A DNA stretch of 64,000 nt from Spirochaetia bacterium (GCA_965203905.1 CBDBDQ010000005.1:5312001-5376000); one strand, 5' to 3'; shown: positions 35,853 through 55,296, numbered from the stretch's first letter. Translations and numbers: made by a program. Notes: generated by a model not told the origin, from the sequence alone.

Positions 35853-38042
35853 TCAGGCGTGGGTCAGGGTCTGGGCGTCAGCCAGGGCGCGCTGTGCCTC
35901 GACCATGCGCCGGTAGCGGCCGCCCAGGGCCAGCAGTTCGGCGTGGGTGCCCAACTCCGCGATCCGGCCCGCCTCCATCACCACCAGCCGCCCGGCGCGG
36001 CGCAGCGTTGCCAGCCGGTGGGCGATCGCGATCACGGTGCGGCCGGCGGTGAGTGCCGCCAGCGCGGCGTGGATGCGTTCCTCGGTTTCCAGGTCCAGGG
36101 CCGAGGTCGCCTCGTCGAGGATCAGGATGCGCGGATCGCGCAGGATGGCGCGGGCGATGGAGATGCGCTGGCGCTCGCCGCCCGAGAGCCGCTGGCCGCG
36201 CTCTCCCACCACGGTATCGAAGCCGTCGGGAAACCCCATCACGAAGTCATACGCCTGGGCGATGCGCGCCGCCTGCAGCACCTCGGCGTCGGCGGCGTCC
36301 GGCCTGGCGTAATGGATGTTGTCGGCCACCGTGCCCGAGAACAGGAACGGGTCCTGCAGCACCACGCTCACTTGGCGCCGCAGCGCGGCGGGCTCCAGGT
36401 CGCGCAGGTCGACGCCGTCCAGGGTGACGGCCCCGCCGTCGACGTCGTAGAGCCGCAGCAGCAGGTTGATCACGGTGGACTTGCCGGCCCCCGAGGCCCC
36501 CACCAGGCCCACCATCTCGCCCGCCGCGATGCGCAGCGAGAAGTCGCGCAGCACCGGCTCCCCCGGCCGGTAGGCGAAGTCCACGCCCGCGAACTCCACG
36601 GCGCCGCTCAGATCGCGGCTCACCGGCCGCGCCGGGGCCGTGATCTCGGGCTCCTGGTCGATCGCCTCGAACACGCGCTCGGCCGAGGTCAGCGCCTCCA
36701 CCAGCCGTTGCGGCATCTCCCCGGCCCACGCCAGCGGCTCCACCAGCAGCACCACGTAGGCCGCGAACTGCACCAGCTCGCCCACGCTCAGCTCGCCGGC
36801 GAGCACCAGGGCGCCGCCGACCAGCAGCACCAGAAGCTCGCCCAGGCGGGTAGCGAACTCCACCAGCGGTCCCATGACGCGCCAGATCTTCTGGTTGCGC
36901 ACGTCGATCACGTACTTGCGGGCGGTCCAGTGATGGTAGCGGGAGATCTCGGCCTGCTCGCGGCGGAACGCCTTGACCACGCGGATGCCGGCCAGCACGT
37001 CGTGCACGAAGCTGCCGATCTTGTCGTGCAGGCGGTGATGGGTGCGCTCCATCCAGCGCGCCAGCCGCCACACCGCCACCGCGAGCAGCGCCGCGAGCGG
37101 AATGGTGGAGATGGTGAGCAGTGCCAGCAGCCAGTTCTGGGCGAAGGCCACCGCGCATAGCAGCGCGAACAGCAGCACCTGGCTCACGCCGTCGGTGGCC
37201 CAGCTCTGCAGGAAGCGACGCAGGTTGGTGGTGTCGGCGGCCACCCGGTTGAGCACGTCGCCCGGCGGCTTGGCGGCGATGAAGCGCAGCGACATCGCCT
37301 GCACGCTGGCGTAGACCGCCTGCCGCAGGTCGTACACCAGCCCGGCGCTGAGCCGCGCCACGCCGCGGTTGCGCAGCACCAGGATTCCGGCCCGCAGCAC
37401 GTAGCTGGCCGCCATCGCCGTTAGCAGCCACGCTACCGGTCCCGGCTGGACGTTGCGCGGCACCAGCCAGTCGTCGATCAGCACGCGGGTGAGCTGCGGC
37501 AGCAGCAGGGTGAGCAGGTTGGCGGCGATGAACAGCAGCAGGGTCAGCAGCACGGTCCCGCGGTGGGGCCGGAGAAAAACCAGCAGGCGCCGCAGCACGC
37601 CGCGCGGGTCGCGCAGCGGCTCGGCCACCCAGTCGCGGGCGAAGCCGCCGCGCTGCTGCGCGGCCAGGCCGTCGGCCGGCGCGGCGTCCCGCTCCTGGTG
37701 CGCCACGCGGGCGCTGCCGTCGAGGGCGGCCGCCAGGCGCAGGTGGGCGCTGGCGTGGCGGCGGCTGAACCAGGCGAGGGTGCGGCCGGCGCCTCCTTGC
37801 GGGGTGACCAGGAACATGCCGGAGCCGGTCATTACCTGGGCGGCGAAGCGCTCGCCGGGGGTGCGCCTGTAGTGCAGCACGGCGCGCCCGCCGGCGACCG
37901 CGAGCACGCTTTTTTCAGTGATCACCAGGTGGCCGTCCTGGTAGCGGGCGCGTGCGTCGAGGTCCGCCGTCACGCAGTGCAGCGGCGTCTCGCTCGGAGC
38001 GGCGGCCGATACCGCGGCGGCCACCCCGGATGGCAGCGTCAA
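35853..38042 (-). CDS. ABC exporter permease/ATPase with an N-terminal extension
   Basis: GASGAGKST, LSGGERQR, ILDEATS, IAHRL; probable TTG start overlapping the DUF1854 stop. Confidence 0.88.
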   Translation of the reverse strand: MTLPSGVAAAVSAAAPSETPLHCVTADLDARARYQDGHLVITEKSVLAVAGGRAVLHYRRTPGERFAAQVMTGSGMFLVTPQGGAGRTLAWFSRRHASAHLRLAAALDGSARVAHQERDAAPADGLAAQQRGGFARDWVAEPLRDPRGVLRRLLVFLRPHRGTVLLTLLLFIAANLLTLLLPQLTRVLIDDWLVPRNVQPGPVAWLLTAMAASYVLRAGILVLRNRGVARLSAGLVYDLRQAVYASVQAMSLRFIAAKPPGDVLNRVAADTTNLRRFLQSWATDGVSQVLLFALLCAVAFAQNWLLALLTISTIPLAALLAVAVWRLARWMERTHHRLHDKIGSFVHDVLAGIRVVKAFRREQAEISRYHHWTARKYVIDVRNQKIWRVMGPLVEFATRLGELLVLLVGGALVLAGELSVGELVQFAAYVVLLVEPLAWAGEMPQRLVEALTSAERVFEAIDQEPEITAPARPVSRDLSGAVEFAGVDFAYRPGEPVLRDFSLRIAAGEMVGLVGASGAGKSTVINLLLRLYDVDGGAVTLDGVDLRDLEPAALRRQVSVVLQDPFLFSGTVADNIHYARPDAADAEVLQAARIAQAYDFVMGFPDGFDTVVGERGQRLSGGERQRISIARAILRDPRILILDEATSALDLETEERIHAALAALTAGRTVIAIAHRLATLRRAGRLVVMEAGRIAELGTHAELLALGGRYRRMVEAQRALADAQTLTHA

Positions 38043-38527
38043 AACATCGCCTCCAGCCGGCGCCGGATGCGCGGCGGCAGCTCGGCGCGCGGCGCCAGCC
38101 GGTAGCGGTTGCCGTCCACGTCGACCAGCAGCAGCGTCCCATCCGGGAGGTCGCGCAGGTTGGCGTGCTCGTTCTGCACCGTGAACCGGGTCGCCCCGGC
38201 CTCCGTATCGACCTGCCAGTGCGACTGGCCGAAGCGCTCCTCCAGCGCCGTGATGGCGGTGATCCGCGGGGCGAAGTAGCGGCGCCGCAGCTCGCCCTCG
38301 ATCAGCTCGCGGTCGGCGGACGGGAAGGTCTCCAGCGGTGCCAGCAGCCCCAGCTCGGCGCCGGCCGCGTCCCGCACGGCGACCAGGTCGTCCGGCGCCG
38401 AGAACGGGAATGCGCGGTAGAAGTCCACCGGCTCGTGGCGCGTGCCACCGGCCAGCAGCGCCCGCACCAGGTCGCCCTCGGTGCGCTCGAACCGTATCTG
38501 CTCGGGTCCCAGCCGGGAACCAATCAT
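38039..38527 (-). CDS. DUF1854-like protein
   Basis: RAFPFSAPD, ELRRRYFAPRI, WQVDTEAG, VDVDGNRY; coupled to both flanking ABC genes. Confidence 0.8.
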   Translation of the reverse strand: MIGSRLGPEQIRFERTEGDLVRALLAGGTRHEPVDFYRAFPFSAPDDLVAVRDAAGAELGLLAPLETFPSADRELIEGELRRRYFAPRITAITALEERFGQSHWQVDTEAGATRFTVQNEHANLRDLPDGTLLLVDVDGNRYRLAPRAELPPRIRRRLEAMF

Positions 38528-40710
38528 TCGCCAACTCCGATCACGTGCAGCGCCTCCTGCTGGCGCTCCACCAGGCGTTGATAGAAGCCGCCATTGCGCA
38601 TCAGGTGCGCGTGCGGCCCGCTCTCCACGACCCTGCCGCCGGCCAGCACGTAGAGCCGCGCCGCCAGGCGCAGCGTGGACAGCCGATGGGCGATCACCAC
38701 CACCGTGCGGCCGTGCACCAGCCGCTCGATGGCGGCCTGGATGCGCAGCTCGGTCTCGGTGTCCACGCTCGCGGTGGCCTCGTCCAGCAGCAGGATCGGC
38801 GGGTCCAGCAGCAGGGCGCGGGCGATCGCGAGGCGCTGCCGCTGGCCGCCCGACAGGCCGTGGCCACCGGGTCCGAGCTCGGTGTCGTATCCGTCCGGCA
38901 GTTGCAGAATGAAGTCGTGGGCGTCGGCGGCCATGGCGGCGGCCACGATCCGGTCGCGGCCGGCGTCGGGACGGGCGTAGCCGATGTTGGCGGCCACGCT
39001 GCCCAGAAACAGGTAGCTGTCCTGCAGCACCACCCCGATCTGCGCGCCGAGGTCGGCAGCCGCCAGGGAGCGCACGTCGGTTCCGCCGATGCGCACCGCC
39101 CCCTGGTCGGGGTCGTAGAGCCGCGCCAGCAGGTTGATCACCGTGGACTTGCCGGCCCCGGTATGGCCGACCAGGCCGATCATCTCGCCGGGCGCCGCGC
39201 GCAGGCTCACCTCGCGCAGTGCCGGCTGTCCGGGGGTGTAGCTGAACGACACCCGTTCCAGGGCAATTCCGCCCTGATTGGGGGTTATATGCCCCGTACG
39301 GGGCGTTTGCGGTAGGTCGGGCGGGGCGTCGATCAGCGTCAGCAGGCGGCGTGCGGCGGTGGCGACGCGGGCCCAGTCCTGAGCCAGCTCCACCAGCCCT
39401 CCGACCGGCCAGAAGAAGCGCCCGAGGTAGCCGGCGAAGGTCACCAGCACCCCGACGCTCACCTGGTCGCGCGCCACCGCCCAGGCGCCCGCGGCCCACA
39501 CCGCCACCAGCACCAGCTCGGTGACGAGCTGCATCGGTGGCTGGGTGGTCCCTACCATGGCGTCGGCCAGGTAGCCGAGGCGCGCCGCCGCGCGGTTGGG
39601 CGCCGCGAACCGCTCCAACTCGCGTTGCTGGCGGCCGAAGGCGCGTACCACTCGCGCCCCGGTCAGGGAGTCGCTGGTGACGGTGCGCAGCTCCGCCTCG
39701 GCCCGGAACAGGCGGTCGAAGTAGGAGTTGACCTCGGGAATGATGCGCCGGAACACGATGAACAGCAGCGGGAAGGGGAGGATGGCCGCGGCCGCGAGCT
39801 GCCAGTCGAGCGCCAGCATGGCGATCAGCGAGCCCGCCAGGAACAGGCCGCCGGTGAGCGCCGACGGGGCGATGATGTGGAACAGCAGCGCGATGTCGGA
39901 GGCGTCCTGCTCCAGCCGGGTCATCATCTCGCCGGTATGGCGGGCACTGTAGAAGCGCATCGAGAGGCGCTGCAGCGACCCGAACGCGGAGCGCTTGAGG
40001 GTGACCTCCAGGTCGTGGATGAAGGCGGCGTTGGTCCAGCCCCAGGTGACCCTGGCGCCCACCTCGGCCAGCAGCGCCAGCAGGATCAGGCCCACCGCCA
40101 GCAGCAGCCGGCCGGCGAAGCGGCCATCGGGAGCCAGCACCTCGTCGAACAGGAACTGCCCCGCCAGCAGCGGCGCCATCACCGCCGCCCCCGCGCCCGC
40201 GGCCAGCGCCACGGCGATCACCGGCAGGCGCCAGTACTTGCTCGCCGGCATCATGGTGAACAGCCGCGGCAGCACGCGCCCGCCGGCCGCCGGCGTCTCC
40301 TCCGGCGCTGGCTCCGCGTCCGCCTCGTCCGCCGGGACCGCCGCGCGCTCCGGGGCGTCCGGCGCGTCCCGCGCGCCGCTCCGCAGCACCCGATTCGCCG
40401 CCTGCACGAAATCCTCCGCCGCGGCCGCCCGCGCACCGGAGTAGCGCGCCAGCAGCCGCACGCTCCCGGCGCCGTGCGCGGTCAGGCGGCCGCCGCTCAA
40501 GTACCGATGGGTATCCAGGCGGTCGATCTCGTCCGCCGCCAGCAGAGTCACGGCGCCGTCACGGACCAGCGCCACCCCGGCCGGCCCCGCGACCAGCCAG
40601 GCGGTCGTCAGGTGCCCGTCCGGGGTGATGTCCGCGGCGAAGGAAGCGACCGCCTCGAAGTCAGGCTGAACTCGTCTCAGCAGCCGGTTAATGTCGGAGG
40701 GCAGGGTCAC
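38524..40710 (-). CDS. ABC exporter permease/ATPase with an N-terminal extension
   Basis: GHTGAGKST, LSGGQRQR, LLDEATAS, IAHRLST. Confidence 0.9.
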   Translation of the reverse strand: MTLPSDINRLLRRVQPDFEAVASFAADITPDGHLTTAWLVAGPAGVALVRDGAVTLLAADEIDRLDTHRYLSGGRLTAHGAGSVRLLARYSGARAAAAEDFVQAANRVLRSGARDAPDAPERAAVPADEADAEPAPEETPAAGGRVLPRLFTMMPASKYWRLPVIAVALAAGAGAAVMAPLLAGQFLFDEVLAPDGRFAGRLLLAVGLILLALLAEVGARVTWGWTNAAFIHDLEVTLKRSAFGSLQRLSMRFYSARHTGEMMTRLEQDASDIALLFHIIAPSALTGGLFLAGSLIAMLALDWQLAAAAILPFPLLFIVFRRIIPEVNSYFDRLFRAEAELRTVTSDSLTGARVVRAFGRQQRELERFAAPNRAAARLGYLADAMVGTTQPPMQLVTELVLVAVWAAGAWAVARDQVSVGVLVTFAGYLGRFFWPVGGLVELAQDWARVATAARRLLTLIDAPPDLPQTPRTGHITPNQGGIALERVSFSYTPGQPALREVSLRAAPGEMIGLVGHTGAGKSTVINLLARLYDPDQGAVRIGGTDVRSLAAADLGAQIGVVLQDSYLFLGSVAANIGYARPDAGRDRIVAAAMAADAHDFILQLPDGYDTELGPGGHGLSGGQRQRLAIARALLLDPPILLLDEATASVDTETELRIQAAIERLVHGRTVVVIAHRLSTLRLAARLYVLAGGRVVESGPHAHLMRNGGFYQRLVERQQEALHVIGVGE

Positions 40711-40998
40711 GAAGCACGGAACCTACCGCCCCCCGCAGCACGCGGTCAACGCCGGAGTTCACGGTACGCGGGGCATCGCCATCAGGGCCATCCCATGCTG
40801 AACGACCTCTGAATCCCGCGTGGACAAGCGGCGGTGATGGCCCCGACCCCTGCCAGATTCGCTGCTCTCAGGGTACGGGTTCGTTCGCTGTACGACATGT
40901 CCACGAACGGGTGGGTTGCCACCCAACCGCAGCGCGCCGTTCTCCGCCGATACATTGCTGCCACGTCGGCGCCGCGGTGCAGGATTGTGCGACAAGTG

Positions 40999-41195
40999 CC
41001 AAAAAAATGCGCTGAGCACTTGACGGGTTTGGCGCCGCTCGTAGTGGCCCCCTGCCGCCCGGTCCGGCCTTCAAACATCCCGCCACGCCCTCCAGGCCTG
41101 TCAGCACCCCGCCAGCGCCGGCCTACACTCTTTCAGGTGCCGGTCCGGGACTTGCCTAAACCGGGCATTTCTTAGCCATGCTTATATTTGCGCCA
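40999..41195 (+). promoter_or_regulatory. Orphan homologue of the HNH leader element
   Basis: CCAAAAAAATGCG..CACTTGACG..GTTTG..GGCCCC.TG.CG..GGTCC..GGTGCC..CCGGGA..GGCA..CCATG..TATATT, colinear with the reverse complement of 29488-29697. Confidence 0.55.
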
Positions 41196-41257
41196 CGGCT
41201 ACCGATTCTATTTTATCCTGCTCGGTTCTGATTCACTCTGTTCTGAGGAGTTGACAC

Positions 41258-41460
41258 GTGCCTGCACAGTTCCATTCTGGTGCATCACCGACACCGGTCC
41301 TTGATGGCTACCCCGTAATCTTGCGGACGCGAGCGGTGCTGGAGTTGACGGATCTGTCGCGTACTACATTATGGCGACGCGAACGAACTGGCGACTTTCC
41401 AAGGTTAGTCAAGCTCGGAGGTCCGGAATCGCGCGCAGTCGGTTTGGCTGCGTTCGGATT
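41258..41460 (+). pseudogene. alpA: AlpA-family phage regulator/excisionase, 3' end disrupted
   Basis: ILRTRAVLELTDLSRTTLWRRERTGDFPRLVKLG..RAVG, after which similarity is lost. Confidence 0.75.
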
Positions 41461-41609
41461 TAGAACGATAGCTGGAGGCTATGTCGAAGGCGTAAGCCGT
41501 TATCGTGAGGACGCGGGGACCGGAGGGAACCGGACAGGATGCAGCCCCTTCCATCTTAGCCGAGGCGGTCGCAAAAAATGCCCTTGTCGGACGTTAGGAA
41601 ACGGCGAAA

Positions 41610-42104
41610 CTAGTTTTTCTTGCGGCGTCGAATACGACGTCGAGCTCGTTCAAGGAATTCGAGAGAGTCAAGAGCATCAAATATCGGTCTGCTTATAACT
41701 AAGCCGAATCTGGGGGAGTTTTGGTTAGTCTGAAGATCGTCATAGATCCCTATAGCCTTGCGCAATCCCAAGATTTGAGTCCCCGTCATAGCGTCTGACC
41801 TGAAATCAAGAGCTTGCTCTACATATCGTTTTGTCGCGTAAAACAGCTTGTGACGGAAATCCTCTCCAGTCACTATTAAGTGGCCCGTTGGAGCGCGTTG
41901 ATCGGGAACTGATTCTGCGAGTAGCGTGTCTCGATGTGCCTCAATTAATGAGGCGATATACTGGATCTGCCCTCTCCGTTTGCAGAGCAGCGTAAGATAT
42001 TGAATGCCGGATAGAACAATTCCCGCTGAAACACCGATAACGACGCCTTCCAGCAATGCAATCGGATCGACTACGAGGGAAGATAGGAGCTGGTCGTCGG
42101 ACAT
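41610..42104 (-). CDS. Hypothetical protein with an N-terminal transmembrane helix
   Basis: 164-aa ORF in lower-GC DNA; hydrophobic IALLEGVVIGVSAGIVLSGI followed by basic residues. Confidence 0.55.
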   Translation of the reverse strand: MSDDQLLSSLVVDPIALLEGVVIGVSAGIVLSGIQYLTLLCKRRGQIQYIASLIEAHRDTLLAESVPDQRAPTGHLIVTGEDFRHKLFYATKRYVEQALDFRSDAMTGTQILGLRKAIGIYDDLQTNQNSPRFGLVISRPIFDALDSLEFLERARRRIRRRKKN

Positions 42105-42329
42105 GATGGAAGTGTAACAAGGAACGCTGCGCCGGCGTCAAGCTGGAATCCACGCCGCCGCGCCAGCCCGAGCGACAGAACGGCAGTTTAAAGAAGCGGC
42201 TGGGAGGGGTGGGATTGGCTTGGCGCTTTCGCGGGGACAAGGCGATACTGAGACGGTGGCAGAGCTTGTCGACCGCCACGGCAACGAGCCGTCTAGATCT
42301 GCCGAAACCAGATTCGCGGACCAGTCGGA

Positions 42330-43100
42330 CACGCCCAGCGACCAGAATCCCGCCGCCATCTTGAGAGCCTCCACCCGTCCGGGCGCCGCAGCCTGCGCCG
42401 GGAACTCGACCGCGCGGTCGCAATCTTCACTGACTAGGCCGTCACAGATGTGACGGCCTTCGACTGGTCGCAGATAGACCTGCAGCAGGTCGAAAGGCTG
42501 CGCTCGGCTATGGTCGACAGCGACGCCGCAGCCAGTACCGTCAACCACATGCTTTCGGGCGCCCAGAGTATGATGCGCATAGCATGGGAACACGGGCTGG
42601 TAGACGACAAGACGCGGATTCAATATCGAGAACGTACGGAACGAGGAGCCGCAACGGCGTCGGCGTGCAGGACGATACGTCAAACGAAACGAGCTCCGGC
42701 GCCTGTTCGCGGCGGCCCGGAACCGACTTTATCGGCGCCCTTCGATGCAGCCGTGCTCGCTTTGCTCTACGGCGCCGGCCTTCAGCGCTCGGAAGCAGTC
42801 GCGCTGCAGCTCGCGGACTACGATCAGGTGTCCGGGGCCATCACGGTTCGCCACGACGAGCGGCAGGTATACGCAACAAACAGCGGCAAGGAAGCGATCG
42901 AAGCCTGGATATCGCGATCCGTGGCGCCTGGCCGGGCGTTTGGCTATGCCCGGTCGCCAAGGGCGGAAGCATCCAGACGCGGGACATGACCGCTCAGGCC
43001 GTGATGGTGCGAGTGCGCAGCATCGCAGAGCAGGGAGGCGTCGACCCGGTTGCCCCAAACGATCTGCGCCTGACGTACTTGACCGACTTGGCGAGGCAGA
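42330..43100 (+). pseudogene. Tyrosine recombinase remnant, copy 1
   Basis: NPAAI..., STVNHML, DAAVLALLYGAGLQRSEAV, MTAQAV, PNDLRLTY spread over several frames. Confidence 0.8.
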
Positions 43101-43383
43101 AGCGCGAAAGTTGGAGTGTCGCCGGTACTCCAGATTGCTTTCCGACGAACGCCCTCTGGAAATTGAGATTGATACGTCGTGAAAAAACGCCTGTATCGCC
43201 TGGCGACTGTCTATGGTACACAACAGAGTGCAGATGCTAGTCGGACGCGCCACAGCACTTAACCTGCTGCGGTCCCGTGCCGAGATGCTCCGATGTCACT
43301 ACCATGACATTCCGTCCCAGTTGTCGAACGGGCACCTGCTGCACCAACCGGCGCTTCCGTGTACGAAGTCATCCCAACAGCAC

Positions 43384-46300
43384 TTAACTACTCACTCCAG
43401 ACGGTGCGACCTCGTCTAGTGTCGACACCCGGCGCCATATGTGGGATCCAGATACATAAATCTTCCGCACGGACTCAGGGATGTCGTCCGGATCCCGACC
43501 GAAATCGAAATTTCTTTCGCCCCAGACAATCCATACTAGCGCGTAGTCATGCGCCTCGCAATAACTATTCAGGAGACGCTCCTTTATGTAAAGAAGATTA
43601 CCACTCTCAAACCCTACAGGCGATCCAACCGTCATCGATACTCTCTCGCCTTTATCATCGCACCAATCCAGACTGTTGGGTATGGCCCTCAGGTCAAACT
43701 TGTCCGCAAACGTTATAGCTGGAATCGCGCCACCACCAGAATCGTTCACGCAGGAATGATACGCCTCCCATAGATACTCATGAACTGGAATCTCAACAGT
43801 GATTTCCCTACCGGAACCGGTCCGAATGGTACCCAAGTACAACCCTCGAAGATCCTTCGAACCGCGCCACTGTCGCGCCCCCGCGCTCCAGGGCATTTCG
43901 CCAGCGAACGAGTAGTACGACACCGGAGGATCAGGAAGCCAATGGTTTCCAGGATAGCGCCGTGAATGAAGCGCATCTTTCAATTCATGAATGTCGCTCC
44001 TTCGAACGAGAATCGCCTTCAGGAAACCGAACACCTCACGCCTATGGACAACGTTTTTCTTCCGAAGAAAACCGTGGAGGGCTAACCAGTGACCACGTTG
44101 TCCGTTAAGATACTCCGACCTCAGTATTTCATCAGGGACCTTCACTAACGCCCGTTTCGTCCATGCTTCAGGATCTAGAGGTTCACAAGGGAGCCAGCCA
44201 TCGATACTTGTACGAAGCGCTGGCGGCGACCGCGGGAATGACGGATCGATGTCGATATCCGAAAGTCGACCATCATCGACATGAAGTGGCAAACGTCCCT
44301 CCTCGTGTAATCTGCCGGCGGCTTCATAGAAACCGATCCATCCATACTTCTTGGCATACGGATCTAGGTGACTCGGATCTATCCGGCCGGCATACCCGCG
44401 AGACTCGGAAATCTCTCGCTCCGCCTCCTCGAATCGGTCCGCTCGCCATCCGAGGTCCCACACACGGCCCCGAATCCAAGATAGTACTTCCTGGTATCCG
44501 GGATGATCGTAGTCATAGTTCCGACGATCAGGAACCAAGCGGCCGACCGTATAATTCTTGAAATCGAAACCGTATAACAGATCGCCGTCTTCATTCCTCT
44601 TGTCATCAGATAGGATAGGACGGACTCTGTTCGGCATAGTAAAGCGCGAGTTTCGTGCGCACCTGCTCTGACGGAAAGTGTGAGGAAAGTAACGTTCCGT
44701 GATCTCCATTATGCCACGCACGTACTCACGAATCAGGGCATGGCTCGTGGGCTTCGCAGCATTCGCGGTGTAATATGTCGTCCAAACTCTGTCGAGAAAC
44801 CCAATTACACCGTCATCAAGGTCGAGATTCTTGCTAGACTCTGCCATCATCACGCCAAACGTAGCTGCGAGTAAGCGCTCCGGAACATACGGATCGTTCT
44901 CGGTAAGGCTGGACATCGTGAGTTGCAGAAGTGTGCTAAGGTCTCCGCGACCGCACCAATACAGTGCCAAGGTCGCCGTATCGCGAAGACAGCGAGCCGT
45001 GCTAGTAAGAAGCCACTTCGTCCAGACAGCCTGCAGCTGATCCTTTTGTGTGTGAGCATGTTCGCTTCGCCACTGGTCTATATACGAGCGCAGTTGAATC
45101 AGTGTGTTTTCTTCCCGTTTCCTAATCCACTCGGTCCATCTGAGGTCACGATCAGGAACTGAAGTTTCACTGAGGATCTGATTTAGGAATTCGGCATTAA
45201 GCGGATGTGTAGGGACGTCGTGGACCTCAAGGAATCGATCGAATAAGTCCCGCTCGAACCGCGGTAGAGGTAACATTGCTATACGCCCGATCTGGGTCAC
45301 TGTTTCATCGTCCAACAACGAGGCTTCCAGATCGGCCGCGGCCACAATCGCGTCGTGTCGTAGCGTCCCGTTGAGCAGCGTCCAGAGTTGGATCCGGTAC
45401 CTTCGCGGAGTCAAAGCTGATAGGGCTGCGCGGATGTCAGCGGATAGCGGGTGAGCTTGGCTTACAACTGTACCAAGACGTGATAAGACGCAATCATTAG
45501 CAATCCACTCCACAAAATCATCCTGACTCATCCGCCCTAAGAGCTCATCAGCTACGAGAAAGCCGGCGAATGCGTCAAATAGGATCACTGTATGGTGAGC
45601 ACCTTTGTGATCTGTATCTCGGCTGAGGATACCCTCATCGACGAACGCTTGCGCTAAGCTACTCGACCAGTCCTGACTAGTGTCGTGGATCAGGGCGCGG
45701 AGTTCGTCGAACGGTATTGCTCGGCGGCGTGTATCCCATAGAGACCGGGCAATAGATTCTAGCGCGGTGCGAATATCCGACGGGAGTCGCCGTGGGCCGC
45801 CGGGACGCTCTGCAATTCGGATGAGTGCCCGGTCGCGGAATAGACGGAACGCGACGACGAGCGACCCTGGAACCTCCTCGGCTCTCTTCCAACGTACGCG
45901 GTCTGCATTCGTCGCCTCGCAGAAGATTCTCAGGAAAAGAGGATTATTAAAGCGCAGAAGGGGTATATGCAGACCACTGCGATCGATCTTGTAGTAATCG
46001 AAGTATCTGTTAACTGCCTTCGCGGTAAACCGCGAAAATCCTCGCAACATAACCTCCGAAATTCCTTGAGGTAGCGTCATACTCCTCGCCGATGGCCTGA
46101 GCGTCACGACGAGAACGACACTGGGAAAACGCTGCAGTACGACTCTCAGAGTCTCGAGCTCCGACTTCCAAGCTGCAGGATCCTCGGAGTCGGATAGTCC
46201 GTCGATCATCACAGGTAGCCGTGCTCCGGCCCGCACCGCAGCTGACTCCGCAGCATCGAGGACCTCCTCGAACGTGTTCGCCGACAGCCCACGCAAACGT

Positions 46301-47414
46301 GGCACAAGATCATCGACAGTATCCCGCCTCCCAAGCGGCCACGCTTCAAGATAGATCCCGCTCGGACGCCCTTTAGTCTCTGCGGTTAATGATGCTCCAA
46401 GATGTGTTTTTCCGCTCCCAGCTTCACCGACAACTGCGACCAACCTCGTCATGTACGTCCGTCGCATCATTGAGAATCGGCGCCGAACTTGATGGTGCCT
46501 GGAAATCGCTGCCTGCACACCAAACGCGCTTAGATGTCCCGACCGCCTTAGCGCTCGACCAAGACGCCGTCCCCTTGCGCGGGTGAACATAAAGCGGTGC
46601 TCGGCTGTATACTCCTCTGTCAAAGTCAGAAAGTCGAGAAACGCTGATCCCGACATCTTGCACAACTTTGCGTGTGACCGTACCAGGTCGTCCAACAAGA
46701 CGTGCATATCATCTCTGTAACGCTCCTCGATCTCTCCGGTCACTGTCCTCAGCTGCTCGACCGAGACGCCGATGGAACTCTCCAAAACCTGCACCTCAGG
46801 CCAATAGCGTAACTCACCTAGCAATCTCCTAATCTGCTGCTCTACCTCCACCACAACATGCACTTCCGGCATCCAGCGTTCCCGAACGGGAGCAAGCGTC
46901 CGTCTACGCAACTCGCGTAGATCATCGGGGGCCAGCACGAGGTTTCCAAATAGGTCCTACGAAAAATCTCACACTCCCCCACCAAATGTGCCTCTAAATG
47001 TTCCTCCGTCCATAAATGTAACCGCATAGTCGATTTCACAGCATAGAACCACTCTTGATCCGTGGGTGTCAGCGGTCTTCTTGTCCACAAGACCCAATCC
47101 GTAATCCCCGGTACATACTTCTGAGCTTTCTGAATCGCATCCTCGATCTTACTACGGCGACCACTACCAATCTGCCGCCCCGGAGGAAGTCCGTACCAGC
47201 GACACTGCCAACCCCAACACCTTCCCTTTTTGCCAAGAGTCGACGAGTCTGCATCTAGCGTGAGGTGGAACTCCACCCCAGGCTGCATCGCCACCGCGCG
47301 AAACAAACCTAGTGCTCCGAAGCTCCGAATGATGACCGACCGACACAGCCTCTCCCAATTGTCGGCCGGCGAACTAGGCAAACTCTCGAACAAGCCCCAG
47401 TCGAGTGCGCTCAT
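43384..47414 (-). CDS. avs2: Avs2-like STAND NTPase with a putative N-terminal nuclease domain, split by a 1-nt frameshift near 46949
   Basis: N-part WGWQCRWY..WVLWT; C-part Walker A GEAGSGKTHL, IDGL, NPLFLRIFCE, WTEWIR, DPYVPERLLAA, KKYGWIGFYE, DIDPS. Adding one T (TAT TT[T] GGA) joins the two ORFs as RRTYFGNLVLAP. Confidence 0.7.
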
Positions 47415-47429
47415 AGTGAGTCCCGCTTC

Positions 47430-47843
47430 TTAACACTCCGTGTCGTCTGGCGGACCATCGGGAAAGTCGTGAAGCGAGTACACCTCCACGTGAGCGCCTT
47501 TTCCGATTAAGAACTTCAAAAAACCTCCGATATCTAACTCCTCCGTTCGAATCACCACCCGAGACCCCTCAGCTTGCACAGAACTTTGCCTATTCAGTTG
47601 CTCTAGTTCCTCGCCCGACACACTGTGGAGATTCAGTTCCTTCAACACTTCCACAAGCGGTTCGATCGTAAACACTGACATTGGATCGTCGTCAAACTCT
47701 TCGTAATCGAACTCACGCTGAACGACGTCGACGATCTTCAGTATCTCCTGCGCAGCTACCTGCGCATCTCCCGATGAGACGAAGTGGCCTATGAGAACTA
47801 GATTAGAAGAGTGCTCGGCACCAAACCCATACCACACTTTCAT
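47430..47843 (-). CDS. DUF6375-like hypothetical protein
   Basis: MKVWYGFGAEHSSNLVLIGHF...KFLIGKGAHVEVYSLHD; family name is from recall; ATGA-coupled to the radical SAM gene. Confidence 0.65.
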   Translation of the reverse strand: MKVWYGFGAEHSSNLVLIGHFVSSGDAQVAAQEILKIVDVVQREFDYEEFDDDPMSVFTIEPLVEVLKELNLHSVSGEELEQLNRQSSVQAEGSRVVIRTEELDIGGFLKFLIGKGAHVEVYSLHDFPDGPPDDTEC

Positions 47844-48745
47844 TCTACTAAATCCGATCTCCTACCGCGTAGTATAGCGAGTGCGTCTTGAACGGACGAC
47901 CGAATCCTTACCCGCTCACTCGAGAAAGACGACTGACGAAGATTACCTGATGCATCGATGTGCGCGTACGCCGTAAGTCCATCCGAGTCGCTAAACGGAC
48001 TCAATATCGGTATACCCTCGAGCGACGGTGTATCTGACAATGCTATCCGATAATCCTGATTCCGCTTGATCCAATCCAGAAGTCTCTCCCACGTTAATGA
48101 ATGTAACGGCTTCCGGTTCCCAACAGGGCGCTCCGGAAGTAAGAGTAGCTCGACTGCTCCAAGATCAAATATGATCTGCGCTGCCGAGTCTAGATGTTGT
48201 ATCGTTTTGTCGTTCACGACGTAGTTTATTCCGAACGGAGCAATCGTCTTAGCTAGTTTTATTTTCTCGAGAAATGCTGGAAAACTACGGCCTCTGAGCT
48301 GCGCATATGTCTCACCATAGCCATCCATAGATAGACGCAGAAAATGTACAGAGCCGTACAGTTCACTGGCTGTAGCGGATGTAAGGTGATGGCCGTGGGT
48401 CGTGAACGAAACTGCAAGGTTCGTCTCCGTTGAGAGTTTCTTACATATTGCAACAAAATCTGGATGCAGGGTCGGCTCGCCGCCGCCTAGGCCGATACCC
48501 ATGCACCCTCCATCGTCCAGCTCCATCGCCCATCGAATAACGGTTTTAATTGGTAGCCTCCCGATGTGCTTCGGGGCGTAACAAAACGAACATTGGAGAT
48601 CACATGCATTCGTGAGTGCCATTGAGACAAACCGTGGTGCTGGGTGTATTCTAGAATCCGGCACTACGATCTCGTCAAATAGCAGGTTTAATCCGCTGAG
48701 CCGGTCGAATAGATGGACTCCGTTATTATCAAGTCGTATTTTCAT
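47840..48745 (-). CDS. Radical SAM protein
   Basis: TNACDLQCSFCY (CxxxCxxC), GGGEPTLHP, TTHG, LSMDG; probable start MKIRLD at 48745. Confidence 0.88.
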   Translation of the reverse strand: MKIRLDNNGVHLFDRLSGLNLLFDEIVVPDSRIHPAPRFVSMALTNACDLQCSFCYAPKHIGRLPIKTVIRWAMELDDGGCMGIGLGGGEPTLHPDFVAICKKLSTETNLAVSFTTHGHHLTSATASELYGSVHFLRLSMDGYGETYAQLRGRSFPAFLEKIKLAKTIAPFGINYVVNDKTIQHLDSAAQIIFDLGAVELLLLPERPVGNRKPLHSLTWERLLDWIKRNQDYRIALSDTPSLEGIPILSPFSDSDGLTAYAHIDASGNLRQSSFSSERVRIRSSVQDALAILRGRRSDLVE

Positions 48746-48759
48746 TTGTCGATGAGCGG

Positions 48760-49150
48760 CCAGACGGACTGCAGGATCGCGTCGTCTATCCTCAGCCACT
48801 GAGTGACGCTCTTGCTAGACGAAAGAGGCCAGTACGAACCGCTAATGTACGAACCCGGTGGCTTGCTATCTCCGTGCTTCTTAAAAAAGTGAGCGGCCCA
48901 CAACAACAGAGCGTCGCCCAACTGGTCTTGCATCGGAGTCGTGATCCGTAGTTTCGTGCTCAGAGTGGAGTGGACGGCGCAGGAGCGGCACGATCGATTG
49001 ATGTCGTCGGTGCGCTGCCGTGTGGCCGCGGTCGCGAACGACTTGTGACAGCGAGCACGCATCCGCGCTGCCTCTTGCGGCTCGAACGCTTCCAGCAGGA
49101 ACAGGCACCCTAATTCGTTGAACTGCCGTACGTGCTCCTTGCTTAGCACC
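48760..49150 (-). pseudogene. PhyH dioxygenase remnant
   Basis: LSKEHVRQFNELG..LGDALLLWAAHFFKK..SYWPLSSSKSVTQWLRIDDA; the HQD motif and C-terminus are lost. Confidence 0.6.
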
Positions 49151-49814
49151 CGCGGGCCGGGCACCCAAGGTGAAAAGGCGCACATTACTTGGTGATCGTT
49201 TGTCGCACCGGACATCACGGCGCTGATTCAGACACCGTTGCCGTGTTGTAGTCAAGACCTCCATTGCTTGCGCAGCTTGGCGCGGTTCGGCGGAAGGGCA
49301 GTCGGTTGCGTCGCGGTCGCCTCCCGATGTGCACGCCAATAGCTTGGCGTGGCCGTACTCTTAGACGTGATTGTCGGCTTCAACGGCGCGGTGGTGAGAA
49401 ATGCGGGTTGCATGTGCACAGCTGCGCATCGGCACCACCAACCCTGGCCCACGTCGAGGCCAAGATCGCCCGCGCCGGGGAAGGCCGGTTGCGGGAGGAC
49501 CAGCTGCCCGCGCTACGCAGCGACTTCGCCGGCGCCGAGAGCGCTTCCGGCGACGCGTGGACCGGCGGACGTCACGGTGGCGATGCGATTCGGTCGTCCC
49601 GCAAGAGCCAAGTGGATCCGAAGGCGGGCGTGGGGGAGCGTGGGGCGTCGCGCAAGCGAAGCCGGCTATGTAGGTGGGATTGGCTTGGTGCGTTCGAGAG
49701 AACAGGGGGGTACTACTTCTCTATGCACCAACCACGTCGCTTCCGCCCGCACGGCTGGATTGACTGTGTAACTGCGGGCGGCTCGACTGTCGCCGAGCTT
49801 CTGGAGCTGCCGAA

Positions 49815-50640
49815 ATGAGTGCCGCGGACGAGTCGGTTGCGCACAGCGACATCGCGCCGGTACAGAACCCCGCCGCCATCTGTCTCGAACGGCTCCACCC
49901 ATCCGGGCGCCGCAGCCTGCGCCGGGTACTCGACCGCGCGGTCGCAATCTTCACTGACGGGGCCGTCACAGATGCGACGGCCTTCGACTGGTCACAGATA
50001 GACCTGCAGCAGGTCGAAGAGCTGCGCTCGGCATTGGTCGACCGCAGCGCCGCAGCCGGCACCGTCAACCACATGCAATCAGGGGTCCGGAGTAAGGCGC
50101 GCACAGCATGGGCCCACGGGTTGGTAGACGACAGGACGCGGTCAAAATCGAGAACGTACGGAACGAGAAGCCGCAACGGCGTCGGCGCAGGCAGATACGT
50201 CAAACGAAACGAGGGTCGGGGCTTGTTCGCGGCGGTGCTCGGTACCGATCCTATCCGTGCGTGATGCAGCCATGCTCGCTTTGCTCTACGGCGCCGGCCT
50301 TAAGCGCTCGAAAGCAGTCACGCACCGGCTCGCGGACTACGACCAGGTGTCCGGGGCCATCACCGTTCGCCACGACGAGCGGCAGTCTACGCGACAGACG
50401 GCGGCAAGGAACAGATCGACGCCTGGATTGCGCATCGCGGCGACTGGCCGGGCGCTGCTGTGTCCCGTCGCTAAGGGCGGGCGCAGCCGGCAGCGGGCCA
50501 TGACCGCCCAGGCCGTGATGTTGCAGTACGCACCATCGGAGAGCAGGCGGGCATCGACCAAGTTACTCCGAACGATCTGCGCCATCTGCGCCTGAGGTAC
50601 TTGACCGAGCTGGAGCTGGAGAGGCAGCGACTCGACGCTT
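49815..50640 (+). pseudogene. Tyrosine recombinase remnant, copy 2 (diverged direct repeat of 42330-43100)
   Basis: Long shared nucleotide runs such as GACCGCGCGGTCGCAATCTTCACTGAC and CAGATAGACCTGCAGCAGGTCGAA; frameshifts differ between copies. Confidence 0.8.
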
Positions 50641-51438
50641 GGACGACAGGCAAGGCCGAAGGGCTACCGGTACCCGTGATGTTGCCCGTTCCGTGCCAAG
50701 CGCCCTGATTCGACGATCAAGCCGGCGGCGGGGGCGCCACGCGGCGCTACGGGCGACAGAAGCGGTCCTATCGGTAGCCGCACAGGTCAGTCGGCGGTGG
50801 TCTCCGGGCGGCCCTTGGGCGCCTCCGCAGGCCAGCCGTTCGTTGGCCAACAGGGCGGGCCGGGCGGCGCACCCTCGATGCGGGCCACACGATTCGCTTC
50901 AGGCCGTACAGGTCGTGGCGCGCACTTCGGCGACGCTCGCACGTAACCGGTCGATCTCCCGGTGCATGGAAGCGCCCTGCGATTCTACTATTGGCGCTGC
51001 ACAGCTCGTCCAGGCTAACTCTGTTTGTAGCCACTTCTACCGGAGCATGCAGGAGCGGAGCCCCCGAAAAGGCGCAGACCCTCTGCACCGGAGCACCGGA
51101 CACGCGATCGTTGTCCTCCAAGTCCACCACGCCCCCGGACCCGTGACCCCAGGTCCAGCGCAGCGGCTTGGCTTGCGAGGAGCTCGTCGCCATAGCCCGT
51201 AGCGCTCAGTTACCGGTCAACCTGCGCCTATTAGCCGCTGCATCCTACGCTGACATCGCAGGCGCCGCTCTAGCCGGGTTGTTTCAGATGTAGTTCTGCA
51301 CGATTGCCCATCTAATGATCGAACAGATACGGCCCTTCACTCGGCGCGCCGGCGCCATCCTGGTGTGCCAGATAGGCACGATTCGTAGCGAGCACATTCC
51401 GCAGTCGTGATTCTGGCTCACCGGCATGTGGCTGTGCG

Positions 51439-52340
51439 TCAACCCGGCGCCAAACGCGTCAGGTAATCCGCCCACGCCTGCATCAGTCTCCGCCGCCGCT
51501 CGAACAGGTCGGAGCGCATGTAGGCGCCTTCGACACCCGCGACAACATGCGCAAGCGCAGAGTCGGCTAACTCCCTTGATTCGTCGTTCTCCGCGCACCA
51601 AGGACCGGAACGACGTACGGAACCCGTGCATCGTGGCGTCGATGCCCGACCCAATCAACAGCGATCTTGTCGTCACGCTACTCAGCGCCTTGCCGGTCGG
51701 CGACGGAAACAGTAGGCCCGAGCCATCCGACAGCTTCTGCGCTTCGATCAGCAACTCAAGCGCCCGAGTTGACAACGGTACCCGATGCTCACGACCGGAT
51801 TTCATTCTCTCTGCAGGTAAGGTCCAGACCCCAGCATGTAGACCCACCTCGCTCCAAGTAGCAAGCCGAGCCTCTCCGGATTGAGCCGCCGTCAAGATCG
51901 TGTACTCCATCAGCAGCTTGGTCGCTGCTTAGGCGTTTGACGCCCGAATCTTGCCTGGCGCACTCGCCACCTCTCGACGATGGAGCGCCCGCCGGTGTCT
52001 TCTCGGGGCAGTCCCGTTCTTGGGCAGCACCTGCGAAACGGCGTCTCCGGCCGGATTGTCACTCCTATACCCTACGCCAATCGACCACCGCATCACCGCT
52101 CCGATCCAATGCCGCAGTCGCCTCGCCGTCTCCTGCCTCCCATCGTTCCAGATCGGCGTCACCACGGACAGAATGTCTGCGCTGGTGACGGCGCCGATCG
52201 GTTGCTCCCCATAATCGGAGAGACGAACCGCCTGAACGATGAACACCAGATGTCGGCGATACGCGGATTGCGCCAAGTGGTGGCGTGCATCTCGACGACA
52301 GTCTCTGACGCCTTGTCGAAGCTCGGTGTGGCGGACCCCT
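51439..52340 (-). pseudogene. P4-type phage integrase pseudogene
   Basis: TPIWND..ETARRLR, DNPA, in-frame TAA at 51929, LTAAQSGEAR (catalytic R to Q), RMKSGREHRVPLS, HGFRTSFR, a frameshift, then LAHVV..VEGAYMRSDLFERRR. Confidence 0.88.
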
Positions 52341-52931
52341 TACTCGGGTCGTGCCCCTGGTGGAGGCTCGTGCGTTCTCCAGCGCCGCCTCACGGGCTTC
52401 CGCCACGCAAGAGCAACCTGGAGTGCCGCCGCCGGAGGGCACGGTCGCCGGTGGCAGCACCACGGCGCCGGCAGCGCCGCCGTCGGGGCTGAGAGACTTG
52501 CTCCGGCAGCACCCCGGTGAGTGCCAAGCCTGCGGCGATTGCGCCCGGCACCGCTACGTCGGCGGCGAAGTCGGCGCCAGACCGCGGGTCCCACGCCACC
52601 GTACCGACGCCACGGCCGACGCCGCCAGCAGACCAGGGCATGCAGGTCGCTCTGGCAGCGGGGGATCGTGGTCGCAACGGTCCTTCGCCAGCGAAGCGGG
52701 CAGGGGAGGCGCACCTTGATGGCCGTTCGCGGCCGCAGCGGCGGCTGCTGCAGTTACGTCGATCCGCACAGCGGGCGGCGCTGCGGGTCGCGCTTCCTGC
52801 TGGAGCTCGACCACATCGTTCCCTTCGCGCTTGGCGGCAGCGCCGAGCCCGGGAATCTCCGGCTCCTTTGCGCTGCCCACAACCGCTTCCGGCATCGGGA
52901 GTACCGACCACGGCCAGACGGGACCACGTGA
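52341..52931 (+). pseudogene. C-terminal remnant of an HNH endonuclease (same family as 28212-29462)
   Basis: Low-complexity linker, then CSYVDPHSGRRCGSRFLLELDHIVPFALGGSAEPGNLRLLCAAHNR. Confidence 0.8.
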
Positions 52932-53108
52932 TCCGCGCCGGGGTGCGAGTCGGGCGGTCGGGCGGTCGGGCGTCGGTCCGATGGCAACGGTAGTTACGAT
53001 TGCAGCCGGCTTCTCGCGTAGCGTGGGATAGTTCTGGCATCGCCATCCGGCGCAGCGTTCATCGCTGCCGACCTGTGATAGGATCGCGCGGGGTTCCCGA
53101 GGCGCATC

Positions 53109-54107
53109 ATGCTGACCTACGTCGCTCGCCGGATCATCTACATGCTCATCATCATGTTGGCGGTGTCGTTGGTCGCGTTCATCATCATCCAACTGCCGCC
53201 GGGTGACTATCTCACCATTGTCATCCAGACGTTGAAGACCAGGGGCATCCAGGTGGATGCGGCCATGATCCGGGCACTCGAAGATCATTACGGGCTGAAT
53301 CTTCCCTGGTACACCCAGTACCTCAAGTGGATGTGGAACATGCTGCAGGGCGATTTCGGCAGGTCCTTTCAATGGAACAAGCCGGTGAGCGAGCTGATTG
53401 CCGAGCGGCTTCCCCTTACCGTCACCATCTCGGTCCTCACCTTGCTCTTCGTCTACGTTGTTTCCATACCGCTGGGGATCTACTCCGCTACCCATCAATA
53501 CTCCCCCGGGGACTACGTGTTCACGGTAGCCGGCTTCGCCGGCCTGGCGATACCGAACTTTCTGCTCGCGCTGATCCTGATGTTCCTGTTCTACAAGTTT
53601 CTCGGGCTCAGCGCCGGCGGCCTGTTTTCGCCCGACTACCAGACCGCTCCCTGGAGCATCGCCAAGGTCTGGGACATGCTGAAACACCTTCCCATTCCCA
53701 TCATCGTCATCGGCACGGCCGGCACCGCGGGGCTGATCCGCATCATGCGCGGCGGCCTCCTCGACGAGCTGCAGAAGCAGTACGTCATCACCGCCCGCAC
53801 CAAGGGTGTTTCCGAGCGGCGGCTGCTGTTCAAGTACCCGGTGCGGCTGGCGATCAACCCCATCATCAGCACCGTGGGATGGACCCTGCCGGCGATTGTC
53901 TCGGGAGAAACCATTACCGCGATCGTGCTGAGCCTTCCCACCACGGGTCCGCTCCTGTATCGAGCCCTGGTCGCCCAGGACATGTACCTGGCCGGCAGCA
54001 CGGTCATGTTCCTGACCTTTCTGACGGTGATAGGAACGCTTCTCTCCGACATTCTGCTGGTTCTGCTCGATCCTCGGATCAGGTACGAAAAGAGCGTGGT
54101 GGCCTAA
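53109..54107 (+). CDS. ABC permease (DppB/OppB-like)
   Basis: Paralogue of 23198-24202. Confidence 0.92.
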   Translation: MLTYVARRIIYMLIIMLAVSLVAFIIIQLPPGDYLTIVIQTLKTRGIQVDAAMIRALEDHYGLNLPWYTQYLKWMWNMLQGDFGRSFQWNKPVSELIAERLPLTVTISVLTLLFVYVVSIPLGIYSATHQYSPGDYVFTVAGFAGLAIPNFLLALILMFLFYKFLGLSAGGLFSPDYQTAPWSIAKVWDMLKHLPIPIIVIGTAGTAGLIRIMRGGLLDELQKQYVITARTKGVSERRLLFKYPVRLAINPIISTVGWTLPAIVSGETITAIVLSLPTTGPLLYRALVAQDMYLAGSTVMFLTFLTVIGTLLSDILLVLLDPRIRYEKSVVA

Positions 54108-55211: not shown

Positions 55212-55296
55212 CCGTGGCGCTGCAGGCGCTCCCGACCGTCTGTTGACAGTCAGCTCTGCTCCGTTACCCTTGGTCAATCCACTGTAGGAGGATGGT

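Follow-up and report, generated by a model that had tools for sequence, protein, structure and literature searches.

A probably inactive copy of the Avap1-Avap2-Avs2 defense operon on a decayed island in a Spirochaetia bacterium, with a predicted contact between its accessory proteins

A 64,000-nucleotide stretch of DNA from a Spirochaetia bacterium (GCA_965203905.1, CBDBDQ010000005.1:5312001-5376000; hereafter the window, in which all positions are counted) contains a radical S-adenosylmethionine (SAM) enzyme gene, a DUF6375 gene, and a gene for an Avs2-type STAND nucleoside triphosphatase (NTPase) on the minus strand at 43384-48745, where four open reading frames (ORFs) make up the three genes (Table 1). 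Comparative and profile-based evidence makes it very likely that these genes represent a further example of a published family of antiphage operons, the Avap1-Avap2-Avs2 (KpAvs2-type) family. The three-gene architecture is not new, having been published and tested in 2024, and the locus itself adds little as one more, probably dead, copy of that defense operon. The structural and complex predictions for the two accessory proteins, on the other hand, provide a new computational lead on the role of the radical SAM enzyme, which becomes a question of binding and mass: whether or not radical SAM chemistry has a protein component of an NLR-like immune complex as its target.

The Avap1-Avap2-KpAvs2 operon was described in Klebsiella pneumoniae S_15PV (Bechon et al. 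2024, Nat Commun 15:9860, PMC11564622; what we attribute to this paper refers to the part of its text available to us). It encodes Avap1, a radical SAM protein; Avap2, with an HHpred match to PF19902; and KpAvs2, which combines an Mrr-like nuclease, a STAND NTPase, as well as a lengthy C-terminal domain. In E. coli, the operon confers defense through abortive infection, in which DNA is degraded, and the substitutions K71A (nuclease) and K337A (NTPase) or deletion of the C-terminal domain of KpAvs2 each abolish defense, while KpAvs2 without the accessory genes defends only weakly. Avap2 binds the helical bundle between nuclease and NTPase, as judged by AlphaFold-Multimer and co-immunoprecipitation, and Avap1 is needed against T2 and dispensable against SECphi18. 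The avap2 gene could not be deleted with avap1 and KpAvs2 present, although either KpAvs2 or Avap1 on its own was tolerated. In the available text, nucleotides of the pVip type are reported as not detected, the AlphaFold model of Avap1 as having no pocket able to hold a nucleoside triphosphate (NTP), and the roles of Avap1 and Avap2 are left open by the authors; Avap2 accompanies ~5% of Avs2 homologs, most of which also have Avap1. The literature searched beyond PMC11564622 yielded no later work on Avap1 or Avap2 function.

Table 1. Features of the operon and of the surrounding island, in window coordinates.
Feature	Position	Strand	Evidence
avap1 homolog (radical SAM, 301 aa from ATG)	47840-48745	-	PF04055 E 2.1e-14
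avap2 homolog (DUF6375, 137 aa)	47430-47843	-	PF19902 E 6.5e-32
avs2 N-terminal ORF, 190 aa	46842-47414	-	
avs2 part 1, Mrr-like (PD-(D/E)xK type) nuclease domain, residues 1-154	46953-47414	-	homolog N-termini align
Frameshift site, one T apparently missing from T run	46947-46952	-	alignment, 3n+2 length
avs2 part 2, 1184-aa ORF: helical linker, STAND/NACHT NTPase, long C-terminal presumed sensor	43384-46938	-	
STAND/NACHT NTPase, Walker A GEAGSGKT, Walker B VMIDGLSD	about 46012-46446	-	
Long C-terminal presumed sensor domain	about 43387-44694	-	
AlpA-type excisionase/regulator gene	41258-41698	+	PF05930 E 2.4e-7; phrog_2790 excisionase E 1.5e-4
Left ~0.9-kb direct repeat, frameshifted tyrosine-recombinase (integrase) pseudogene	42208-43103	+	phrog_1 E 6.6e-6; motifs in two frames
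Right ~0.9-kb direct repeat, integrase-like remnant	49673-50625	+	
Partial tyrosine integrase gene, right island edge	51284-51910	-	PF00589 E 2.3e-6 (profile positions 38-136 of 172); phrog_1 E 3.3e-14

Gene content and conservation of the trio

An earlier note on this DNA, made from the sequence alone, had described three tightly packed genes of lower GC content on the minus strand, and every element of that description was borne out. The GC fraction of the operon is 0.532, compared with 0.687 for window positions 1-40000; the start of avap2 overlaps the stop of avap1 by ATGA, and a gap of 15 nt separates avap2 from avs2. The radical SAM enzyme has the CxxxCxxC motif that the note had seen, with cluster cysteines C48, C52, and C55, along with a GGGEP SAM motif, and position 48745 is its correct start since homologs begin with the same MKxR residues. 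The small second protein is indeed acidic (27 D+E versus 9 K+R; isoelectric point 4.32) and its family was correctly named, scoring 111.4 bits against the PF19902 cut-off of 27.5; it had no match in PHROGs or PADLOC. For the third gene, the estimate of ~1340 codons agrees with the distance of 4031 nt from ATG to stop, or about 1343 codons when read through. The note had also mentioned a Klebsiella Avs2 with similar accessory genes and had suspected that the architecture might not be new; both points were correct, the architecture being that of PMC11564622.

The same three genes recur together in other genomes. We aligned 81 DUF6375 proteins (alignment A1) from a HMMER search that returned 210 representative clusters (E ≤ 0.001) among 1.84 billion proteins, scanned one genome per prokaryotic species with this alignment, and examined the best 80 of 164 relatives. 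Searched by tblastn with the four pieces from the window, all 80 Avap2-anchored loci presented Avap1, Avap2, and the Avs2 nuclease domain in this order on one strand, and 78 also had the NTPase part, the other two ending at a contig edge. An arrangement with the same order and strand in 80/80 related genome loci is far beyond chance, and co-occurrence of the three genes is strict among them. Because this first scan was seeded on the N-terminal motif of Avap2, it was repeated on metagenome contigs with Avap1 as the anchor (best 80 of 447 relatives examined; in both scans, more distant relatives may differ). Among the metagenome loci with enough downstream flank, Avap2 lay directly downstream of Avap1 in 69/69, the nuclease domain of Avs2 was present in 57/57, and the NTPase in 43/43. 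Avap1, Avap2, and Avs2 are an obligate trio across many phyla, among loci with enough flank.

Avap1 is the best conserved member of the trio, with ~50% identity to gammaproteobacterial copies versus ~31% for Avs2, and Avap2 identity ranges from 33% to 44% across the 80 genome loci. The 4-nt overlap between avap1 and avap2 was found in 63 of these 80 loci, which suggests translational coupling of the two genes.

The Avs2 protein

The Avs2-like identity proposed in the earlier note agrees with the PADLOC profiles, six Avs2 models of which match the 1184-aa piece at E values from 5.8e-113 to 5.2e-41, the best being PDLC02164 over residues 4-748. A NACHT match was found in the same piece (E 2.1e-6), as was a match to the NCBIfam Avs2 equivalog NF041813 (E 2.9e-80, residues 165-747). 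Matches to Avs2 hidden Markov models (HMMs) end at residue 748 and leave the C-terminal 435 residues uncovered. One set of homologs (1334-1399 aa) shares 45-50% identity with the 1184-aa ORF across 99-100% of its length, C-terminus included, and the alignment of the Avs2 C-terminus with homologs extends to residues 1144-1184. Gammaproteobacterial homologs from Pseudomonas, Aeromonas, Halomonas, and Xanthomonas (1339-1345 aa) show ~31% identity over 97-99%.

The 190-aa N-terminal ORF alone had no Pfam match. With a profile built from 29 Avs2 N-terminal domains (alignment A3), the one relevant solved protein matched was EcAvs4, at its N-terminus (E 2.3e-5 over residues 1-102 of 8dgf_A), in an alignment that pairs nqpGvEf with NQSGIET and GWQcKwY with GWQSKFY; the putative N-terminal nuclease domain of the earlier note is thereby supported. 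The nuclease motif residues are E21, E48, Q70, and R72. The window Avs2 and its closest relatives read QCR rather than QCK (codon of residue 72 at about 47199-47201), with R in place of the catalytic lysine equivalent, K71 in KpAvs2. At this position, K occurs in 55 of 71 loci and R in the remaining 16.

On a tree of 61 full-length proteins and the long piece from the window, built with FastTree only, the R state requires at least 4-6 changes and is scattered, so that K versus R was rejected as a clade marker. Since it arises repeatedly across the tree, R appears to be a variant that recurs and is tolerated, and not a sign of decay. The window Avs2 is sister to a copy in an Acidobacteriota metagenome-assembled genome (MAG; 47% identity, support 100) and groups apart from Actinomycetota copies. 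Two observations weigh against the identification as a KpAvs2-type operon: the NF041813 score of 270.7 bits, obtained with the 1184-aa piece rather than whole Avs2 as the query, is far under the cut-off of 1000, and R stands where KpAvs2 carries the mutated K71, with the activity of the R form being putative.

A probable frame break in avs2

In the sequence as assembled, Avs2 is not encoded as one uninterrupted gene. The distance from ATG to stop equals 3n+2, and therefore one base is apparently missing. When both avs2 pieces were aligned with the first 300 residues of nine homologs (1334-1399 aa), the 190-aa ORF tracked them to ...EIFRRTY and the 1184-aa frame resumed at FGNLVLAPDDL, with the break inside a conserved motif that homologs read as RRTYFG(D/N)LVLTPD. 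There are three T's at the site, where four would preserve the frame. Past the break, the 190-aa ORF continues for 35 out-of-frame residues, ending at 46842. The lesion is single, and the 1184-aa frame matches homologs up to the final residues.

Three public sequencing runs (X1, X2, and X3) of one study contain this DNA. The contig from X1 (depth 11.2) covers 46400-47500 with no difference from the assembly; that from X2 (record 4, 46716-47061, depth 4.6) bridges the frameshift site with 0 differences and 0 gaps; and that from X3 ends at 46947, short of bridging it. We consider the frameshift likely to be real. What weighs against this is that the supporting runs come from one study and may be the source of the assembly itself, such that a systematic read error is possible. 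If the frameshift is real, this copy of the operon is probably inactive as an abortive-infection device: the nuclease domain is severed from the linker, NTPase, and sensor, and the copy is therefore most likely inactive.

It is possible, although we think it rather unlikely, that the break is a sequencing or consensus error and that the operon is intact and functional in this organism. Such an error would fit a gene with only one lesion, in a short homopolymer, whose remaining 1184-aa frame matches homologs end to end, and the genome, with 5 contigs and 7.9% contamination, fits a long-read metagenome assembly. Short ORFs are also found in 10 of the 71 delimitable homologous Avs2 loci, several of them from MAG assemblies, in which assembly errors are as plausible as decay. 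Yet the separately built contigs from X1 and X2 reproduce the site exactly, and a T run of only 3-4 bases is not a typical error hotspot.

Avs effectors work by being brought together when the NTPase to which they are fused oligomerizes. Partly for this reason, it is very improbable that the split gene still functions as a pair of polypeptides, one a free nuclease domain and the other a sensor-NTPase, even though both pieces are long open frames and a GTG or ATG follows soon after the break. In 61/71 delimitable loci, the homologous gene is one ORF of 1300 aa or more, the N-terminal piece carries its out-of-frame residues at its end, and inspection by eye revealed no clear ribosome-binding site ahead of the second piece. 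Programmed frameshifting was rejected on two grounds: the sequence at the break does not form a slippery heptamer, and the same 61 of 71 homologs are single ORFs.

The short Avs2 ORFs in other genomes (<1300 aa, spanning 214-1190 aa) were those of loci L010, L018, L019, L020, L035, L052, L059, L065, L083, and L084; in L035, the nuclease and NTPase parts lie ~1.3 kb apart. These ten loci could reflect either frequent Avs2 inactivation or assembly errors.

Avap1 structure and its predicted contact with Avap2

The only cysteines in Avap1 are C48, C52, C55, C81, and C101, and it has no SPASM or twitch cluster because no cysteine occurs after residue 101; scores against the SPASM-family NCBIfam models were all far under their cut-offs. 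Nor did the protein reach the cut-off of the viperin model NF038283 (viperin_w_prok), with 49.5 bits against 180. The predicted structure (mean predicted local distance difference test [pLDDT] 92.8) comprises three N-terminal strands (residues 2-23), a radical SAM barrel, and a C-terminal hairpin and helix. Foldseek searches with this model placed SkfB (E 2.4e-15) and SuiB (E 8.5e-15) first, followed by DesII, viperins, and MoaA. Coverage of the N-terminal strands and C-terminus of Avap1 is confined to the peptide maturases; viperins match the core alone.

The AlphaFold2 model of Avap2 has a mean pLDDT of 91.6, with residues 1-10 at 53, and no PDB structure was significantly related to its fold. 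Most of the invariant positions of the DUF6375 family fall in this low-pLDDT N-terminal tail (MKxWxGxGSEHS), in which W4, H11, and S12 are invariant and M1, K2, G8, and E10 nearly so (alignment A1). Among 150 representatives, apparent tail-less forms of Avap2 were mostly proteins starting at the internal Met of NLVMIG or short fragments, and were set aside, as they have the appearance of miscalled starts or of incomplete records. Two other unusual forms were noticed: P0245 (246 aa) is a tandem double DUF6375 protein, the second copy of which lacks the N-terminal tail, and P0385 (153 aa) has the first ~29 Avap1 residues joined to a tail-less Avap2 body, which looks like a gene-fusing deletion.

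We predicted the complex of Avap1 and Avap2 with our own alignments (A2 and A1, respectively), for which benchmark counts are only a rough guide. The pair passed the test built into the predictor, with a median score of 0.70 (runs 0.70, 0.78, and 0.47), compared with 0.25 for the best control. Among solved complexes, 58 of 80 reached this mark, as did 2 of 110 mismatched pairs. Contacts agreed between runs at a level of at least 35%, and partner pLDDT was at least 64. Residues 1-12 and 14 of Avap2 are predicted to contact residues 17-25 and the barrel edge of Avap1 (38-39, 82-83, 111, 113, 134-135, 170, 198-201, 226-237, and 247-250). The predicted pairs 20:4, 22:2, and 21:3 (Avap1:Avap2) indicate strand addition to the third N-terminal strand of Avap1. 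In the full-length matches, the strands at residues 2-23 align within SkfB and SuiB, and the Avap2 tail is predicted to pair with strand 19-23; this part of Avap1 may correspond to the RRE-like peptide-recognition element of SPASM/twitch maturases, to which the leader of the substrate binds as an added beta-strand. Positions conserved at ≥90% are enriched at the interface in Avap2 (8/17 residues versus 6/120 elsewhere; Fisher p 2e-5) and in Avap1 (17/34 versus 74/267; p 0.01). In the main-text passages on Avap1 available from PMC11564622, there is no mention of an Avap1-Avap2 interaction.

The earlier note had offered the small protein, the Avs sensor, or a nucleotide as the target of the radical SAM enzyme. 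The small protein gained support from the structural matches and the complex prediction, both computational, while the nucleotide lost ground to the low viperin score and to the report, in the available part of PMC11564622, that no pVip nucleotides were found. The full-length matches to SkfB and SuiB, together with the docking of the Avap2 tail, favor a protein rather than a nucleotide as the putative substrate of Avap1.

A possible mechanism and its alternatives

Several steps are established for KpAvs2 and would apply here by homology. A phage protein would be bound by the C-terminal domain of Avs2, the STAND NTPase would then oligomerize, and the N-terminal Mrr-like nuclease would degrade DNA, aborting the infection. 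Avap2 would be constitutively bound to the helical linker that joins nuclease and NTPase, and would be required for full defense, with Avap1 being required against some phages only. To these steps we add a tentative proposal, based on the structural models. Avap1 may be a cut-down radical SAM enzyme resembling the maturases of ribosomally synthesized and post-translationally modified peptides (RiPPs), acting on a protein and not on a nucleotide. It would grip the invariant, flexible N-terminal tail of Avap2, which would add a strand to the N-terminal beta-sheet of Avap1 in the way that a leader peptide does on a maturase. Either modification of Avap2 by Avap1 or gating of Avap1 by Avap2 might then tune the activation of Avs2. 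Such tuning fits both the phage-dependent need for Avap1 and the inability to delete avap2 with avap1 and KpAvs2 present, as given in the available part of PMC11564622.

A more specific version is possible, though somewhat doubtful: Avap1 would be a minimal RiPP-maturase descendant free of auxiliary clusters, which uses the Avap2 tail like a leader and installs or removes a radical modification there, thereby setting the threshold for Avs2 activation. If true, post-translational radical chemistry would be at work within a bacterial NLR-type immune system.

Several points weigh against the proposed grip and modification of Avap2. The contact rests on model confidence, and the enrichment of conserved residues at the predicted interface is not independent evidence, because the predictor uses the same alignments. 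SkfB and SuiB lead the viperins only modestly in the structural comparison (by about 2-3 Z units), and their auxiliary clusters are missing from Avap1. As the contacted barrel residues lie at the starts of beta-strands, the tail may dock without reaching the SAM and cluster site, and the invariant tail could instead be a surface that binds Avs2. Any modification by Avap1 would not be obligatory, given that Avap1 is dispensable against one phage in the KpAvs2 experiments described in the available text.

An alternative that we consider unlikely, but deserving of weight, is that the substrate of Avap1 is Avs2 or a phage protein, with Avap2 being only an adaptor or inhibitor that restrains Avap1 through its N-terminal tail. 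The deletion results in the available part of PMC11564622, where neither KpAvs2 alone nor Avap1 alone was harmful and avap2 could not be removed beside both genes, suggest that Avap1 acting on KpAvs2 may be harmful without Avap2. A need for Avap1 only against T2, in the same source, would fit a phage-specific role, and the predicted contacts lie at the starts of barrel strands, not clearly in the active site. The docking of the Avap2 tail on Avap1, however, resembles the binding of a leader peptide. That Avap1 is instead a viperin-like maker of a chain-terminating or otherwise antiviral nucleotide, forming a chemical layer independent of Avap2, is improbable in light of its score under the viperin cut-off, the missing pVip-type nucleotides and NTP pocket described in the available part of PMC11564622, its full-length matches to peptide-modifying enzymes, and its position directly upstream of Avap2 in 69/69 loci with room.

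Genomic setting

A decayed integrative island carries the operon as low-GC cargo within a genome of high GC content. The low-GC stretch extends over about 40.8-52.5 kb, between ABC-transporter genes (35853-40710) and an oligopeptide-type transporter (53109-57276), and contains the excisionase gene and the integrase remnants in Table 1. The operon is bracketed by two direct repeats (families D1-D12; 81-96% identity) that lie about 7520 nt apart, each encoding a frameshifted remnant of a tyrosine recombinase. Contigs C3 and C5 of this genome hold related copies with 79-84% identity, and copies related to the right repeat have 79-80%. The bracketing repeats and their recurrence in the genome suggest small integrative elements that form a family and offer a slot for cargo.

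We searched with window positions 40000-53000 against the genome's own contigs and 20 relatives, and among the matches listed none fell inside the operon. Its flanking modules, in contrast, have several further matches within the genome, with identities of 79-92%. Of 401 genomes sampled from the phylum, this was the only one in which DUF6375 was detected, and it occurs here once. With recurrent flanks and a single DUF6375 gene, the operon appears to be unique, horizontally acquired cargo among repeated, decaying integrative elements. No Rfam RNA family was found in 40000-53500 and no tRNA gene in the window, and promoter and terminator scans performed at chance level.

Other features were observed around the operon. 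An element of ~155 nt at 52744-52898, with dozens of matches (75-86% identity) across genomes from the genus and family of this bacterium, looks like a dispersed repeat of the miniature inverted-repeat transposable element (MITE) or repetitive extragenic palindromic (REP) type. At the left boundary, a ~430-nt stretch (40768-41205) has at least 7 copies in the genome at about 81-82% identity and no Rfam or tRNA match, and may be an element end or attachment region. In the low-GC part of the island, a 164-aa ORF at 41610-42104 on the minus strand, unmatched in Pfam and PHROGs, contains a single hydrophobic stretch that resembles a helix and could be additional cargo. The stretch just upstream of avap1 (48780-49241), where a 158-aa ORF (48742-49218) has no Pfam match, matches genomes of relatives at 65-67% DNA identity, unlike the operon, and may be a remnant of the element backbone.

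Comparison with known systems

The closest described system is the KpAvs2 operon. Gammaproteobacterial relatives that are ~31% identical to the window Avs2 carry the nuclease K71 and the Walker A K337 at the residue numbers of KpAvs2, and two genomes of Fig. 1B in the available part of PMC11564622, Nitrospirae JdFR-85 (our locus L007) and Syntrophobacterales Delta_02 (L036), carry the trio among the related loci. The window copy differs in that its Avs2 is only about 30% identical to the gammaproteobacterial group, its nuclease motif reads QCR instead of QCK, and its avs2 is frameshifted; its host, moreover, has a high-GC genome and is the only one of the 401 sampled from its phylum with DUF6375.

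EcAvs4 (PDB 8dgf) shares the Mrr-like N-terminal domain, in which the G-x-E and GWQxK motifs align. The resemblance is confined to this domain: the sensor of Avs4 differs, Avs4 has no Avap partners, and the window protein has R at the K position. The canonical single-gene Avs2 is reportedly AVAST type 2, as described by Gao et al. in 2020 and 2022. The STAND NTPase core of the window protein matches Avs2 HMMs (PADLOC E 5.8e-113; NF041813 E 2.9e-80), whereas the window locus has two accessory genes, an NF041813 score under the cut-off, and 435 C-terminal residues unmatched by these models.

For Avap1, two groups of enzymes serve for comparison. It differs from pVips in falling under the viperin cut-off (49.5 versus 180) and in being always paired with Avap2 and Avs2; for the Avap1 of the KpAvs2 operon, the available part of PMC11564622 reports neither pVip products nor an NTP pocket. 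SkfB (6efn) and SuiB (5v1q, 5v1s, and 5v1t) are the nearer structural matches, with an identity to Avap1 of only 14-20%. Compared with these maturases, Avap1 is ~100 residues shorter, keeps a three-strand remnant of the N-terminal domain, and has no SPASM or twitch auxiliary clusters, and its presumed substrate is a folded 137-aa protein, where theirs is a short precursor peptide.

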